From: Candidatus Thorarchaeota archaeon
GTDB lineage: Archaea; Asgardarchaeota; Thorarchaeia; Thorarchaeales; Thorarchaeaceae
Assembly (NCBI GenBank): GCA_008080745.1
Contig: SHMX01000004.1
Span: 60,001 to 92,000 of the forward strand
Length of the DNA stretch: 32,000 bases
Direction of reading: 5' to 3'
Part shown: piece by piece, positions 7,451 to 13,026 of the stretch
Numbering within the stretch: the first letter of the stretch is position 1
Layout of the letters: each line of letters begins with the position of its first letter
Position numbers and translations under genes: made by a program
Notes under the pieces: generated by a model
Database searches by the model: none
What the model was told of the DNA's origin: nothing
The model's input: the letters and a program-made list of their open reading frames with translations, nothing else

Positions 7451-9397
7451 GTGCAAAAAAAATTGAGCGGATCCGGTTCAGGCGATATCAAGCAGGGAAC
7501 TATTGCTAAATTCATGAGAAAAAGGACTCAACTAGTTGGTTTTGAAACTGGTTTAAACAAACATACACAATATGCAATCGAGTTTCTTGATAATGCTATC
7601 GACGCATTGGAAAGTTGGTGGTGGAAGACTAAGAAGAGACCACGATTACCGGATCAATTAGAAGAGAAGTATGTCGAGGAAATTCGTGAGAAACTAAAAG
7701 ATGAAGTCTATGATTCAATATCTCTGAGTAAGAAATTGGAGAAGAAAGTTCGCGCTGGAAAACCAGTTGATATCCCCGTTAGGAAAAAAGAATCTCTTGA
7801 TGACCGAGTTACACGATTTCGAAAATTCCTGATGCCCTTTAGGGGGATGATTAACCGACGAGAACCCCTTGTTGTAATTCAATTAACTGAAGTTTTCATG
7901 CCCGATCTGATTCCACTTGATGATGAAGAAGGATTCAAAGTCTACGAGTTTACCTGTTTTGATAATGGCGTTGGAATGGTTCCCTCTGATTTGGAAAAGT
8001 TTGGAATATATCTGGCGTCAAGCAAATCAGAAAAATTACGTCAAACAAGAGGTAGTCAAGGATTTGGCTCACCGTCTGCATTCAGTGACGCACAAAATAC
8101 TACGGGAAAACCAATTTTTACAATCTCACAACGGTTTACCGCGAAAAAAGCATCTGTTGCTGATTTTTACACTACTACTTCGAATACGAAGGATTATGTG
8201 GCTGGACCTATTCAGATGGAGTTACCTTTCAAACATGGTACATACATCCGTTTGAATTATCTAAATATCCAATACCGTCGAGGATATGCTGACACATATG
8301 CCGAGATGGCGTCTCTATTGAATTCTCATGTAACTATAGTGTTCATAGATCCTTATGGCGATGTGCATATCTATCCTCGGAGAGTCAACAAATTTCCTGA
8401 AGAGCCCAAGTATGCCCAACCCCATCCTGCTAGCATTCGTATTGGAGAATTTCAAGATCTATTACGTGAAACGACCGAAGACTCACTCTATGGTTTTCTA
8501 ACAAAAGCATTTACCCGACTAAGTGCAGCAAAGGCAAAATCAATCATAAAAGCGACAAATAAGGAACTTCGAAAACGCCACCAAGACACAATATCAACAA
8601 GAACTCCAACAGAATCACTTTCGAAACTTGAGGTAGAATTACTTTACAAGAACTTCTCAAGTGAAGATTATATTGCACCCCCAACTGATACTGTTGTACC
8701 CGTTGGAGAGGAGGTTTTCGAGCAAACAATCCAGATGGCATATAATCCCGAATTTGTCTGTGCTGTAACGAGAAAACCAACTTCCGGGAAGGGGTTGTCT
8801 TTTGCAGTTGAGGTCTGCATTGCATATGGTGGAGAAATCAAGCCAGCCACCTCTGCGACTATGGTTTTATGGCGTTTTGTTAACCGGGTTCCAAAGCTCA
8901 GGGATAATAGTGATTGTGCAACTTGGAAAGCCAGTACTATGGTGAACTGGCGTAATTACAAAGTGAAAACATTTGACAATGGTATTCCACGAGGTCCGAT
9001 TATGGTTTTCATTCATGTCTGCGGTGCTTATGTTCACGTTATGTTCAAGGGTCAGAGTAAACAAGCTCTAGCAGAAGATGAGGTATTGCTTAAAGAAATC
9101 AAGTTAGCTCTAGAACAAGCCGGTCGAAAATTTAGAAGGTTCATCACCAAGAGAGAACGAGCTAAAAGAAAGGCTAAACGTGCTGGAGTCCTTTCTATGT
9201 ATGCTGATCAGTTTGCAGAGAGTCTAGTTTCAATTGTCAACTCCGCGGACTCAAAGTCAAATTATGATGCTGAAATAGTGGCAAGCCGATTGAGAAGCTC
9301 GATTGCTGGATATGATAGTCACGTTGAGGACGATGATGAAGAAGAGGAGGAAGAAGCAGAAGACGAAAAAGAACTAATTGGAGATGATTCCGATTAG
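7451..9397 (+). CDS. top6B: DNA topoisomerase VI subunit B, with a GHKL-domain insertion and acidic C-tail
   Basis: N-box EFLDNAIDA, G1 DNGVG, RGSQGFG lid, HGT, H2TH region, RFVNRVP, transducer lysine in GQSKQA. Confidence 0.93.
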   Translation: MQKKLSGSGSGDIKQGTIAKFMRKRTQLVGFETGLNKHTQYAIEFLDNAIDALESWWWKTKKRPRLPDQLEEKYVEEIREKLKDEVYDSISLSKKLEKKVRAGKPVDIPVRKKESLDDRVTRFRKFLMPFRGMINRREPLVVIQLTEVFMPDLIPLDDEEGFKVYEFTCFDNGVGMVPSDLEKFGIYLASSKSEKLRQTRGSQGFGSPSAFSDAQNTTGKPIFTISQRFTAKKASVADFYTTTSNTKDYVAGPIQMELPFKHGTYIRLNYLNIQYRRGYADTYAEMASLLNSHVTIVFIDPYGDVHIYPRRVNKFPEEPKYAQPHPASIRIGEFQDLLRETTEDSLYGFLTKAFTRLSAAKAKSIIKATNKELRKRHQDTISTRTPTESLSKLEVELLYKNFSSEDYIAPPTDTVVPVGEEVFEQTIQMAYNPEFVCAVTRKPTSGKGLSFAVEVCIAYGGEIKPATSATMVLWRFVNRVPKLRDNSDCATWKASTMVNWRNYKVKTFDNGIPRGPIMVFIHVCGAYVHVMFKGQSKQALAEDEVLLKEIKLALEQAGRKFRRFITKRERAKRKAKRAGVLSMYADQFAESLVSIVNSADSKSNYDAEIVASRLRSSIAGYDSHVEDDDEEEEEEAEDEKELIGDDSD

Positions 9398-9411
9398 GAG
9401 GATGCCCTATC

Positions 9412-11979
9412 GTGGCCAGGAAAACGAAATCAAAGACCGTTCAATCTACACTTGGAGATTTGGTAGAAACCGAGTCTAAAACAGATTCAAAGAAGGGAAA
9501 AAAAACCATGAGTCGAAAAAAAGCAACTAAATCAGAGAAAACCACCTCCAAGCTTGACATGAAGAAACTACCTGGAGTTGGGGCAAAAACGCGAGATAGT
9601 CTCATTGAATCTGGTTATAGTACTGTTGAAAAGATAGCGAAATCTAAACCTGCCACCATCTCCAAGAAGGTTGATGGCATAGGAGAATCTACTGCTGAAA
9701 AAATAGTCACAGCAGCTAAAGATATGATCAAGGCAAGTAAACCCGACAAGAAAACCAAAAGGAAGAAACCATCCAAATCAAAGAAAACCACCTCCAAGTT
9801 CGATATGAAGAAACTACCTGGAGTTGGAGAAAAGACTCGTGATAGCCTCATTGAATCTGGTTATAGTACTGTTGAAAAGATAGCTAAAACAAAACCTGCC
9901 ACCATTTCCAAGAAGGTTGATGGCATAGGGGAATCTACTGCTGAAAAAATAGTCACAGCAGCTAAAGATATGATTAAAGCAAGTAAATCCACTAAGAAAA
10001 CTACCAAAAGTAAAAAATCCACTAAATCCAAACCTTCTTCGAAAGTAGATATCAGTCTGGATGAGTTACCTGGGATTGGTTCCAGCACGAAAGAAAAGCT
10101 AATCGAAGCTGGTTATGATTCTATTGATAAAATCGCTTCCGCTGAAACTAGCACTCTTGCTAAAAAAGTTGAAGGGGTAGGCAAAAAAACCGCTACAGAT
10201 GCTATTGCTGAAGCCAAGAAATTAATGAAGACAGACAAACCCCAACCAAGTAGAAAGAAGAAGACAAAGCCAAAGGAATCAGCATCCAAACCCTCACCTG
10301 ATAAGAAATTACTTTTGAAAGATTTACCAGGAATAGGAAAGAAGACTGCTGAAAAGATGGAGGAATCAGGATATGATTCCGTGGTAAGAGTTGCACGTGC
10401 AACACCGGAATCAATTGCCAAACGCGTCAGTGGTATAAGCACTTCAATGGCACAGGATATTGTTGAGGTAGCAAAGGAGCTCGTCAAAAAACAACAAATG
10501 GATGAGATGGCCCAATCAACTAGTACAGAAACCGTACCCGAAGACAAAGCTGAAATGGAAACTGAAGAAGAATCGAAGAAAGAGAAGAAAACACCAAAGT
10601 CTCGAAAGAGCAAGAAAACAAAGAAAGAGAAAACAAAAGAACCCGAGAGTGATAAATCCAAAGTGACTCCCAAAAAGACCTCAAAGAAGCGAACTAGGAA
10701 AAAGCGGACACATAAAACCCCGCAACAAATCCTCGAAGAAAAGAGATCAAAAATCGTCAAGAAGAAATCAGGATTACCCGTGCCAAAAACCATCGTAGCA
10801 CTTACGAAAGAAATGAAAGACAAATGGGCTGTTGCAGAAGCACGAGAGGCTGCCTTTCAGGCTGGGGAACTTTCTGATGAAGAAATGGCTGGAATAGAAG
10901 AAACAATAGAGGTTCTAGACCTGACTCGCAATGAAACAAAGCAGAAGGTAGTAGAGGTTGCCAGGGAGATTCTTCAAGAAACTATGGTGACTGGTCGTCC
11001 AGCTTTTGAAATTCCGAAGAGGTCATCAAGCAATATAGTTTGGGATGAAATACGAGACCTCCTTCTTCTAGGCATGGATACTGTTTCTCGACCATACCAT
11101 TCTCTTGGGAGTGTTGTTGATGCCACTCGTACTGCGAGAGTAATGGAAATAGTCTTTCAGCTTCTAGAGTCCAACCTTCATGCAACGAAACGAGAAGTAT
11201 TCTATAGTGATGTGAATCTCTTTAGAGATCAGAAATATAGTGATAGAATTCTGGAAGATGTTGCATCAATGCTTCACACAACTCGTGATAGTATACATGT
11301 TGTAGCATCTGCTAGGGGCTCTGCTATGGGTCGAGTAGTAATTAGAGATGGTGGTGATCTCATTGACCTGACAAAAATGGGTACTGGAGGATGGGCAATC
11401 ACTCCTTTCCTTGATCAGGTTGAGATTGTGGAAAGCGATGCTGAATATATTCTACTATCTGAGAAGGACGCCGCTGTAATGCGTCTGGCTGAAGCAAAAT
11501 ATTGGAATCGTGAACCCTGTATTGTATTAACTGGAAAGGGTTCAGGAGATATTGCAACGCGTGCATTTCTTAAGAAGTTAGTTAAGGAGCTTGAAATACC
11601 TGCCTTTGCCCTGGTGGATTCGGATCCTTATGGACACTATATCTATTCCGTTTTCCTTCGTGGAAGTAAAAGATTAAGCTACGAATCTCCTTTTATTGCT
11701 ACTCCTGAATTGAAACTACTTGGTGTGCTTTCAAGAGATCTCGATGAATACAGTATCCCAAAGGCTGTCAGGATACCCATGGAGGCAACTGACATTAAAC
11801 GTGTAAAGGATATGATTGATGAGCCATTTGTAAAGTCCAACAAGGAGTGGGTAAAGGATCTCAAACTCATGCTTAAAATTAAAGAAAAAGCAGAGATACA
11901 AGCTTTTGCCAGTCACTCTTTCAGTTACCTTACAGATGAATATATACCTACCAAGCTTGAAACTGGTGACTGGATTTAG
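9412..11979 (+). CDS. top6A: DNA topoisomerase VI subunit A (Spo11 homologue) with an N-terminal arm of four (HhH)2 modules
   Basis: The C-terminal ~355 aa carry catalytic TKREVFY (Tyr at 11203-11205), TOPRIM EKDA, TGKG, DSDPYG and KAEIQA. The N-terminal ~500 aa carry four LPG(V/I)G...G(I/V)(G/S) repeats and Lys-rich linkers. GGAGG lies upstream of the GTG start. Confidence 0.93.
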   Translation: MARKTKSKTVQSTLGDLVETESKTDSKKGKKTMSRKKATKSEKTTSKLDMKKLPGVGAKTRDSLIESGYSTVEKIAKSKPATISKKVDGIGESTAEKIVTAAKDMIKASKPDKKTKRKKPSKSKKTTSKFDMKKLPGVGEKTRDSLIESGYSTVEKIAKTKPATISKKVDGIGESTAEKIVTAAKDMIKASKSTKKTTKSKKSTKSKPSSKVDISLDELPGIGSSTKEKLIEAGYDSIDKIASAETSTLAKKVEGVGKKTATDAIAEAKKLMKTDKPQPSRKKKTKPKESASKPSPDKKLLLKDLPGIGKKTAEKMEESGYDSVVRVARATPESIAKRVSGISTSMAQDIVEVAKELVKKQQMDEMAQSTSTETVPEDKAEMETEEESKKEKKTPKSRKSKKTKKEKTKEPESDKSKVTPKKTSKKRTRKKRTHKTPQQILEEKRSKIVKKKSGLPVPKTIVALTKEMKDKWAVAEAREAAFQAGELSDEEMAGIEETIEVLDLTRNETKQKVVEVAREILQETMVTGRPAFEIPKRSSSNIVWDEIRDLLLLGMDTVSRPYHSLGSVVDATRTARVMEIVFQLLESNLHATKREVFYSDVNLFRDQKYSDRILEDVASMLHTTRDSIHVVASARGSAMGRVVIRDGGDLIDLTKMGTGGWAITPFLDQVEIVESDAEYILLSEKDAAVMRLAEAKYWNREPCIVLTGKGSGDIATRAFLKKLVKELEIPAFALVDSDPYGHYIYSVFLRGSKRLSYESPFIATPELKLLGVLSRDLDEYSIPKAVRIPMEATDIKRVKDMIDEPFVKSNKEWVKDLKLMLKIKEKAEIQAFASHSFSYLTDEYIPTKLETGDWI
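9538..9987 (+). repeat. In-frame direct repeat: two 204-bp copies (9538-9741 and 9784-9987), period 246 bp = 82 codons
   Basis: The copies are nearly identical at DNA level, e.g. ATTGAATCTGGTTATAGTACTGTTGAAAAGATAGC and GAATCTACTGCTGAAAAAATAGTCACAGCAGCTAAAGATATGAT occur in both. Confidence 0.97.
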
Positions 11980-11990
11980 TTCCAGTCACC
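11965..11990. terminator. Perfect 10-bp hairpin with the top6A stop codon in the loop, followed by a pyrimidine tract
   Basis: GGTGACTGGA-tttagt-TCCAGTCACC then CTCTCTCTTTTTTC; TAG at 11977-11979. Confidence 0.6.
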
Positions 11991-12105
11991 CTCTCTCTTT
12001 TTTCATCTATTAAATACCTGTTCAGAAAATGATTCTAATTCCTTTTTGGATAAAGTGATAAGCAGATTCTCTAATACATAAACAATAGTTAAACGGGGTT
12101 GAATT

Positions 12106-13026
12106 ATGCCAGTAGAAGAGCTAGATAATTTGGAAGTCATTGATGCCCATGCCCACTTTTTCACCTATTCGATGCTGAAGGAATGGTTTTCAGATCCTAA
12201 GAATGTTGAGCGAATGAAAGCTCGAGTCAAATATCAGACTGATGTAGGAAAATTTGAGTTACCAGATGAAGAGTGGGATATAGGACAGATGTGGATTGAT
12301 GAAATGGATAGGTATGGTATATCTGCAATGGGTATGATGATTAGTCCTCAGGCTTGGGATGAATTCAATGAGGCAAGGAAAAAATTTCCTGGGCGATTTC
12401 TTGGATATGCTCAAATAGATCCAGATCAAGATCCTGTTGAAACTGTGAAACGAGCGGGGAGGGATGGATTTCAAGGCATTAAGCTATATCCAAGCTCGGG
12501 GAAACACCATGTATATGAGAGAGACCTTTTCTACCCAATCTATGAGGAGGCAAAGAAAAATAACTTGTTGGTCATTATCCATTTTGGAATAACAATTGGA
12601 AATGAAGCAAATTTACGGTATGGAAATCCTTTGGACATCCAAAGACCTGCTCTTGATTTTCCAGAACTTAATTTCATGATTGCCCATTTTGGTGCTGGAT
12701 TCTTTCGAGAGGTACTAATGTTAATGTATCAGACAGAGAATGTTGTCATGGATAGCAGTGGAAGTAATAGCTGGATGACATATCTTCCATATGATTTGAC
12801 AATTCAAAAAATATTCGAGAAGGCTCTTCGAGCAGGTGCCTCCTGTCGCATTGTTTTTGGGACCGATTCTTCCTTTTTCCCCCGTGGCTTTAGGTACAAC
12901 ATTCTTGAGGAGCAATATCAGGCAGTTAAAGCATTATGTCCCCAGCTTTGTTATTCAGATGAAGACATTTCTCTGATCTTTAAGGAGAATATACTGCGGC
13001 TTACTGATTTTCAGCTTGACATCTGA
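12106..13026 (+). CDS. Amidohydrolase superfamily protein (Amidohydro_2-like)
   Basis: DAHAH, GIKLYP, IHFG, IAHFG and FGTDS motifs. Confidence 0.9.
   Translation: MPVEELDNLEVIDAHAHFFTYSMLKEWFSDPKNVERMKARVKYQTDVGKFELPDEEWDIGQMWIDEMDRYGISAMGMMISPQAWDEFNEARKKFPGRFLGYAQIDPDQDPVETVKRAGRDGFQGIKLYPSSGKHHVYERDLFYPIYEEAKKNNLLVIIHFGITIGNEANLRYGNPLDIQRPALDFPELNFMIAHFGAGFFREVLMLMYQTENVVMDSSGSNSWMTYLPYDLTIQKIFEKALRAGASCRIVFGTDSSFFPRGFRYNILEEQYQAVKALCPQLCYSDEDISLIFKENILRLTDFQLDI

Follow-up and report, generated by a model that had tools for sequence, protein, structure and literature searches.

The window analysed here is a stretch of 32,000 nucleotides (nt) from Candidatus Thorarchaeota archaeon (GenBank assembly GCA_008080745.1, contig SHMX01000004.1, positions 60,001 to 92,000 of the forward strand). 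It contains a gene for the A subunit of topoisomerase VI (Topo VI), top6A, of which the product carries a long N-terminal arm composed of four helix-hairpin-helix (HhH) modules of the (HhH)2 type, joined by lysine-rich linkers. That the open reading frame 9412-11979 specifies a real and intact topoisomerase subunit is as good as certain. The arm most likely serves to tether the enzyme to DNA in a flexible and multivalent manner, perhaps with coupling to the sliding clamp, and we regard this role as probable. The host is an Asgard archaeon with a genome of 3.16 Mb that is 98% complete, and those close protein matches that bear names are mostly labelled Thorarchaeota. The gene, its catalytic core and its operon comprise the following features.

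9412..11979, + strand: top6A, 855 amino acids (aa), N-terminal arm followed by a Top6A/Spo11 core (Pfam, NCBIfam and solved-structure alignments; the N-terminus agrees with that of the homologues)
11125..11301, + strand: 5Y-CAP (TP6A_N) domain with catalytic Tyr598 (nt 11203-11205) in the motif KREVFYSDVNLF (Pfam PF04406, E 3.6e-19, residues 572-630)
11446..11958, + strand: TOP6A-Spo11 Toprim domain with Glu684 and Asp736-x-Asp738 (Pfam PF21180, E 1.8e-53, residues 679-849)
10720..10992, + strand: helical N-terminal extension of the core, residues 437-527 (AlphaFold2 helices 437-444, 459-483, 489-496 and 506-527)
7451..9397, + strand: top6B, partner ATPase subunit, 648 aa (Pfam Topo-VIb_trans PF09239, E 3e-43; NCBIfam PRK04184, E 4e-103)
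9396..9402, + strand: Shine-Dalgarno-like AGGAGGA, overlapping the top6B stop codon and 9 nt upstream of the top6A GTG (direct sequence reading)

The core has all the hallmarks of a Topo VI A subunit. The coordinates of the Toprim domain were identical in a whole-genome search, the NCBIfam Top6A models match residues 503-855, and the best relative of known structure is the Top6A of S. shibatae (E 3e-57). In an alignment of 48 sequences, among which a diatom Top6A, Tyr598, Arg594, Glu684, Asp736 and Asp738 are invariant, and Tyr598 falls on the catalytic Tyr region when the product is aligned with 2zbk, 1d3y and 2q2e. The alignment of the product to 2zbk_A starts near residue 507, and the modelled helices 459-483 and 489-496 precede, as judged by this alignment, the part that matches the S. 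shibatae protein. The start codon of top6A is a GTG that is separated from top6B by 14 nt; because of this spacing, and of a Shine-Dalgarno sequence that overlaps the stop codon of top6B, the two genes are considered to form an operon. An alignment with the two Top6B paralogues of the genome indicated that Top6B retains the N-box Asn, the G1 and G2 boxes, the KxxxK switch region and the transducer. Between its N-box and G1 box lies a charged insert of ~90 aa, beginning WWWKTKKRP (window 7592-7963), which is also present in the Top6B of the sister-family orthologue described below (P0288). With a 5Y-CAP domain, a Toprim domain and a cognate Top6B all present, the top6A product is, by its sequence, a type IIB A subunit. 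As the A subunit, the product would assemble with the Top6B of its own operon, with which it is co-translated, into a functional A2B2 enzyme belonging to the Asgard/eukaryote type of topoisomerase VI.

The arm ahead of this core contains the elements listed next, for which the module positions were obtained with a hidden Markov model (HMM) made from the four repeats themselves, and for which the predicted local distance difference test (pLDDT) values come from an AlphaFold2 model built on the 48-sequence alignment (mean pLDDT 79.9).

9559..9726, + strand: (HhH)2 module 1, residues 50-105 (Pfam HHH_5, own HMM, five helices with pLDDT >90)
9805..9972, + strand: (HhH)2 module 2, residues 132-187, protein 96% identical to module 1 (Pfam, own HMM, AlphaFold2 model)
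10057..10224, + strand: (HhH)2 module 3, residues 216-271 (Pfam, own HMM, AlphaFold2 model)
10315..10482, + strand: (HhH)2 module 4, residues 302-357 (Pfam, own HMM, AlphaFold2 model)
10483..10719, + strand: disordered Lys/Glu-rich linker, residues 358-436, 30% Lys and 15% Glu (composition; pLDDT <50 over 371-434)
9517..10008, + strand: two tandem 246-nt units (9517-9762 and 9763-10008), each an (HhH)2 module plus linker (self-comparison, Tandem Repeats Finder)

Pfam places four HHH_5 stretches in the arm (E 7e-44, cut-off 27 bits). When the arm is compared with proteins of solved structure, its top sequence matches are the HhH repeats of Methanopyrus kandleri topoisomerase V (Topo V; 8df7, E 1.4e-8) and the N-terminal domain of Rad51/RadA (2.4e-8). 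The model assigns pLDDT values above 90 to the core and to the four modules, each of which consists of five helices, and values below 50 to residues 1-46, 371-434 and all inter-module linkers. On this predicted structure, the four repeats are (HhH)2 domains with the two-motif, five-helix fold, and the arm would resemble a string of beads, with additional helices (437-527) between it and the CAP domain. Read from the sequence, both hairpins of modules 1-3 carry G-[VI]-G, and those of module 4 read G-I-G and then G-I-S. The net charge is +53 over residues 1-500 and -9 for the core. The C-terminal tail of the partner Top6B is acidic (net -15 over the last 40 aa, window 9278-9397), opposite in charge to the arm of Top6A, and it might mask this basic arm. 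The initial annotation of the window, made from the sequence alone, had described an 855-aa Top6A with an intact core, four repeats and Lys-rich linkers. The repeat HMM returned the same nucleotide coordinates for the repeats, and the inter-module linkers were found to contain 33-42% Lys. The Pfam, Topo V and RadA matches likewise bear out its view of a type IIB A subunit with a built-in (HhH)2 array.

What escaped that annotation is that modules 1 and 2 are the product of a 246-nt tandem duplication. The two units can be aligned without gaps at 88% DNA identity (Tandem Repeats Finder: period 246, 1.9 copies, 91% matches) and differ at 30 nt and 10 residues. Eight of the 10 residue differences are in linkers and two lie inside the 56-aa module. 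Since the ratio of nonsynonymous to synonymous substitution rates (dN/dS) between the units is 0.14, both copies appear to be under purifying selection.

It could be supposed that the long reading frame is an artefact of assembly or gene calling, by which the gene of an HhH protein became fused to top6A, and it is true that short-read contigs end inside the tandem duplication. However, a protein search gave 235 relatives of 600-953 aa from many independent assemblies, and the precomputed domain lists contain both HHH_5 and Top6A for 119 of the 120 relatives listed, the lone exception being an N-terminally cut protein of 601 aa that has no HHH_5 entry. The architecture is accordingly found in more than 200 homologues from independent assemblies, and the survey of the family yielded 74 orthologues with open frames longer than 600 aa, most of the shorter ones abutting a contig end. 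In two marine-sediment DNA sequencing runs, which may represent the source sample, contigs cover 9000-12200 without differences and break only within the 246-nt duplication. In each of the two runs, one contig covers 9945-12200, again without differences, and an independent contig of 9.6 kb thereby includes modules 3 and 4, the linker and the core. The region 10500-10950, which the initial annotation had singled out for a check of read support, lies within this stretch. A further contig piece, 9699-9876, bridges the junction of the two tandem copies. Because the contigs break inside the duplication, the number of tandem copies is derived from the assembly, from such junction-bridging pieces and from the four-module proteins of close relatives. 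With this evidence, the chance that the gene is an artefact is practically nil.

The armed gene is widely conserved, and its architecture a fixed trait, in one archaeal family. A single-copy orthologue is present in 79 of the 85 genomes of the window's family, covering 16 genera, with cores that are 80-97% identical, and an orthologue was found in each of the 24 high-quality genomes of the order. The open frames of the orthologues typically measure 700-790 aa, with a maximum of 954 aa. Four modules, which the initial annotation had reported, are indeed present in the gene of the window, but they are not the norm: among 121 homologues, two modules are found in 108, three in 2, four in 7, five in 1 and seven in 3, the seven-module form having been confirmed with Pfam. 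In the sister family, represented by one genome, the orthologous operon encodes a Top6A of 420 aa that is 75% identical and has a Lys-rich N-terminal tail of ~60 residues, without an HhH module. In a maximum-likelihood tree (IQ-TREE, 75 rows, 365 columns) the armed proteins form one clade with a support of 100 in the Shimodaira-Hasegawa-like approximate likelihood ratio test (SH-aLRT), and this clade is sister to the unarmed protein of the sister family (100). Together they are nested among the single-copy Top6A proteins of other Asgard families, in an enclosing clade (SH-aLRT 99) that also holds the diatom Top6A and that excludes the genome's two paralogues, A1 and A2. Phylogenetically, top6A is hence a vertically inherited Top6A of the Asgard/eukaryote type.

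Outside this lineage the arm was not encountered. An exhaustive search of 1.84 billion representatives gave just two armed clusters, and the next relatives, among which a Thalassiosira protein (KAL7535636.1), are 42-48% identical. The HhH module was absent from every extended non-Thorarchaeota Top6A that was scanned (long forms of 833-947 aa), and both scanned non-Thorarchaeota proteins of ~840-900 aa carry inteins. From the monophyly of the armed clade, the unarmed sister orthologue and the HhH-free relatives outside, it follows that the arm represents a single gain on a vertically inherited enzyme of the Asgard/eukaryote type. The unarmed sister-family orthologue would date this gain to the ancestor of one Thorarchaeota family, in which an N-terminal arm of ~300-500 residues would have been placed ahead of the helices that contact Top6B.

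The armed enzyme is not the only Topo VI of the cell. The genome contains three complete Topo VI B-A operons, of which the two unarmed ones are located on contig 2 (L007:6421-8989, -) and contig 3 (L008:4147-6832, +) and encode proteins of 503+363 and 509+390 aa. Against the armed core, their A subunits reach only 117 and 40 bits, and in the tree they are placed outside the Asgard/eukaryote clade; orthologues from other Asgard archaea score about 500-620 bits against the same core, as compared to 117 for the canonical-type paralogue of the genome itself. In the contig-3 A subunit, which has a very long branch, D-M-S replaces the Toprim DxD, and this protein may be catalytically altered. Most other Asgard families have a single Top6A, and GyrA was not found in this 98%-complete genome. 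The presence of two unarmed Topo VI paralogues next to the armed one in the same genome suggests a division of labour.

Nor is the module confined to topoisomerases. An (HhH)2 module with a Lys-rich linker is also fused to L32e (two modules), to an S25e-like protein, to Rpo6 and to two HEAT-repeat proteins (loci in the same genome: C12:15136-16188 (-), C1:72325-73209 (-), C3:136973-137635 (+), C2:208487-209173 (+) and C1:140523-142151 (+)). Because of these fusions to ribosomal proteins and Rpo6, the module is better regarded as a general nucleic-acid tether than as a topoisomerase-specific element. Thorarchaeota Rpo6 was described to carry an N-terminal 'helix-loop-helix' fragment (PMC13257274), which is probably the same (HhH)2 module. 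The N-terminal domain of RadA was considered as a source of the arm modules and rejected, since within the genome the arm modules most resemble the ones found in the L32e fusion and in a HEAT-repeat protein (34-51% identity), and the RadA domain is outside the seven best matches of every arm module.

At its extreme N-terminus the arm carries a short linear motif that resembles the PCNA-interacting peptide (PIP) box of clamp-binding proteins.

9436..9465, + strand: PIP-box-like motif TVQSTLGDLV, residues 9-18 (disordered, Lys-flanked N-terminus; pLDDT <50 over 1-46)

All of the 37 N-termini that were aligned have the pattern V-Q-x-T-L-[GDN]-[DE]-h-h between Lys runs, with Q11, T13 and L14 invariant. 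In most of them the distance of the pattern to the N-terminus is 10-19 residues, and in one it amounts to 29. The strict pattern occurs in 86 of the 121 homologues, and it was not found in the N-terminal 160 residues of unarmed Asgard orthologues. The genuine PIP boxes of the genome read QSSLTDFF (FEN1), QTSLTDFF, QTVLTDFF and QATLDQWI, and comparison with these indicates that the Top6A tip shares the Q-x-[ST]-L-x-[DE] half and has Leu-Val instead of the aromatic pair. One of them was found in a second, divergent gene of the FEN1/XPG family (C4:154460-155488, +), which ends in QATLDQWI, the canonical FEN1 gene on contig 2 ending in QSSLTDFF.

A complex of the genome's own PCNA (contig 2, 446424-447173; alignment of 18) and Top6A residues 1-45 (alignment of 37) was modelled with an interaction prediction score from aligned errors (ipSAE) of 0.74, against 0.00 for the best control, with runs that agree in at least 77% of the contacts and a partner pLDDT of at least 50. 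Of 80 solved complexes, 58 attained this mark, as did 2 of 110 mismatched pairs. Top6A residues 7-20 are positioned on PCNA residues 40, 43-47, 123-128 and 242-249, which is the canonical peptide site. Several observations plead against clamp binding. The tip sequence, Q-S-T-L-G-D-L-V, lacks the aromatic pair of the consensus Q-x-x-[LIM]-x-x-[FYW]-[FYW], deep-branching forms with four, five and seven modules do not even have the aliphatic pair, and the score of the model may reflect mere likeness to solved complexes, since structures of PCNA with peptides are abundant. That the tip of the arm binds PCNA is a tentative proposal, suggested by the modelled complex, which we consider possible and not probable. 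To our knowledge, no topoisomerase VI is a PIP client, and no description of a link between Topo VI and PCNA or a PIP box was found in the literature. The nearest is that Topo VI subunits co-purify with NucS and PCNA in P. abyssi (PMC4929162), the only Topo VI-PCNA link that was found.

Regarding the function of the arm, it appears fairly likely from its sequence features that non-specific tethering to DNA is its main role. The (HhH)2 modules and the Lys tracts would each bind duplex DNA through its sugar-phosphate backbone, irrespective of sequence, and the heterotetramer would bear eight modules on two long flexible arms. These would prevent the enzyme from leaving the DNA after a catalytic cycle and in the presence of salt, and may help to capture a second duplex, favouring crossings and catenanes. 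The wrapping, bridging or compaction of DNA that the initial annotation had put forward is a conjecture. It is more speculative that the tip peptide docks on PCNA and so brings the armed Topo VI to replication forks. Against a role as DNA tether it can be brought forward that the DNA binding of the modules is a prediction from family membership, that modules 3 and 4 are not basic (net charge -1 and 0), and that module 4, like its counterpart in most relatives with two modules, is without the second Gly in its second hairpin. In view of its fusions to ribosomal proteins, moreover, the module may have no less affinity for RNA or proteins than for DNA. A more far-reaching possibility is that of a replisome-coupled type IIB topoisomerase, in which the (HhH)2/Lys arm holds DNA, the non-canonical PIP tip docks on PCNA, and the enzyme travels with forks, removing positive supercoils or precatenanes, with the unarmed paralogues doing other jobs. 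In this complete form we find the proposal rather unlikely.

The arm could also be mainly a device for recruitment or localisation, via PCNA, chromatin proteins or condensate formation by its Lys-rich disordered segments, with the handling of DNA unchanged. The invariant short linear motif at the very tip of a disordered region and its modelled position in the PCNA peptide site fit this view, as does the addition of adaptor-like modules in other Asgard lineages (a ubiquitin-like N-terminal domain on Top6A; SAP, HeH and Rho_N motifs on Top6B). However, (HhH)2 modules are classic non-specific DNA binders, and the range of two to seven modules is better suited to tuning of avidity than to a single docking role. 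We consider recruitment as the main function of the arm unlikely, although it is compatible with tethering. It is quite improbable that a promiscuous mobile module was added in this lineage almost neutrally and that the arm has little effect on the function of the enzyme. Such an addition would be in line with the occurrence of the module and its Lys linker on at least five other, unrelated proteins of the genome, with the unstable copy number (2-7, with a tandem duplication in the window's gene), and with the sister family, for which the unarmed orthologue is evidently enough. It is difficult to reconcile with the retention of the arm in 79 of 85 genomes and 16 genera, the dN/dS of 0.14 between duplicated units of which the changes are concentrated in linkers, and the invariant tip motif.

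Finally, the protein might be a Spo11-like maker of double-strand breaks for recombination instead of a topoisomerase. Its Tyr motif, FYSDVNLF, resembles that of eukaryotic Spo11/TOP6A, a diatom Top6A is among the nearest non-Thorarchaeota relatives of the core, and radA is located 7.5 kb downstream. The flanking genes (F420 ligase, amidohydrolase, zinc-ribbon/TPR protein) gave no functional link to the operon. The Top6B encoded next to it has kept every ATP-binding motif as well as the transducer, in contrast to the degenerate TopoVIB-like partners of Spo11 (PMC9665070), and the gene is the single-copy, vertically inherited Top6A of most Asgard genomes, which makes a break-making role very improbable. 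The reading of the arm as a DNA tether on a functional topoisomerase is the one we prefer.

In archaea, Topo VI serves as the main type II topoisomerase; Spo11 descends from it, and in vitro it is a weak and distributive enzyme. The Thorarchaeota family and its sister offer a natural series of unarmed and two-, three-, four-, five- and seven-module enzymes of the eukaryote type in one lineage, in addition to two unarmed paralogues in the same cell, and this series is well suited for asking how a type IIB topoisomerase changes in processivity, salt tolerance and choice of substrate when it carries DNA-tethering domains. With a clamp-binding tip, if confirmed, Topo VI would for the first time be linked directly to the replisome. 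If the replisome coupling is true, it would mean, alongside the HhH, SAP and ubiquitin-like domains that Topo VI acquired independently in other Asgard lineages, that tethering of type II topoisomerases to chromatin or the replisome arose in the archaeal relatives of eukaryotes, in a role comparable to that of Topo II alpha's C-terminal region. No description of the arm was found in the literature on topoisomerase VI, Top6A, Thorarchaeota and Asgard HhH proteins, and it is not mentioned by Allen and Maxwell (2024), in two reviews or by Villain et al. (2022). The initial annotation was right in this respect, as no account of the architecture turned up in the searchable literature. Its description of an 'undescribed system' goes too far, since we are dealing with a lineage-specific domain addition to a vertically inherited Topo VI of the Asgard type, and the protein is already present in public databases, where such proteins often bear the uninformative name 'helix-hairpin-helix domain-containing protein', which hides a core replication enzyme. 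What is new here is the four-module state with its selected tandem duplication, the unarmed sister orthologue, the promiscuity of the module in the genome, and the PIP-like tip. The paralogy of Topo VI has consequences, too, for phylogenetic work that employs Top6A as a marker; the problem was noted in a report of mixed Top6A orthologues among Asgard archaea (PMC12411855).

Compared with the canonical archaeal Top6A proteins (2ZBK_A of S. shibatae, 1D3Y, and 2Q2E_A of M. mazei), the window's protein has the same 5Y-CAP Tyr, Toprim Glu and DxD, and an adjacent top6B, but its core is only about 30-35% identical to theirs. The full-length chains of 2ZBK and 2Q2E are armless and measure 369 and 389 aa, in agreement with the ~350-400 aa that the initial annotation gave for canonical Top6A; 1D3Y is a truncated chain of 301 residues (M. 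jannaschii). With the Asgard/eukaryote-type TopoVIA, such as plant TOP6A/SPO11-3, the protein shares the clade, in which its core is 43-48% identical to the other Asgard and diatom proteins, and its model has extra N-terminal helices before the CAP domain that may correspond to theirs. Brinkmeier et al. 2022 (PMC9665070) described extra helices in Asgard TopoVIA, with an additional N-terminal helix ahead of the Top6B-interacting helix, and make no mention of helix-hairpin-helix domains. Plant RHL1 and BIN4/MIDGET, which are named in the same paper, also provide extra DNA-binding capacity to a eukaryote-type Topo VI, but they are separate subunits without HhH domains, and no homology to the arm was seen; the arm may be regarded as a functional analogue of RHL1/BIN4.

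Other Asgard archaea have added repeats of a DNA-binding type as well, but to the B subunit, at the other terminus and in divergent form. The Top6B proteins of the Loki-, Hel- and Sigyn-type are 1135-1400 aa long, some with SAP/HeH/Rho_N motifs (P0290-P0390). In one Asgard family, a Top6B of 2311-2342 aa has a long C-terminal RAD51D_N/HHH_5-like array and is encoded directly upstream of a Top6A of 470 aa (L064:1794-8729, -). The HMM of the Thorarchaeota module gave no match to the repeats of this giant Top6B, which points to independent gains of HhH domains on Top6A and Top6B. With a Top6B of 1408 aa as query, a protein search retrieved no relatives of 2465-5000 aa, which is weak evidence, and another Asgard family that was tried had Top6B proteins of about 1140-1300 aa only. 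Several other Asgard families possess a Top6A of 469-506 aa with a conserved N-terminal domain of ~110 residues (L010, L011, L016, L018, L020, L022, L024, L026, L027; P0123, P0130), for which Pfam gives a weak ubiquitin-family match (P0123, E 0.0023, below cut-off). One other Asgard family has two Top6A genes (391 and 472 aa) on a single contig, in the same orientation and separated by 11 kb (L016, G305 contig 125: 2988-3500 and 14343-14855), and the same is found in G308 and G309.

The tip of the arm can be compared to the PIP-box clients FEN1, the RFC large subunit and PolB, with which it shares the Q-x-x-L core, a disordered terminus and basic flanks. Like these clients, the peptide is modelled on the interdomain connector loop, the hydrophobic pocket and the C-terminal tail of PCNA, and it differs by its Leu-Val. 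A parallel to the architecture as a whole is Topo V of M. kandleri, which likewise combines a topoisomerase with a tandem (HhH)2 array, and whose (HhH)2 domains confer processivity and salt tolerance. Topo V belongs to type IC and bears 12 (HhH)2 domains on its C-terminal side, whereas the armed Top6A is of type IIB and has two to seven N-terminal modules with long Lys-rich linkers. It does not have a type IC catalytic domain, its core being type IIB and the match to Topo V being confined to the HhH repeats. By analogy, the armed Top6A may work like Topo V, without being a member of the Topo V family.

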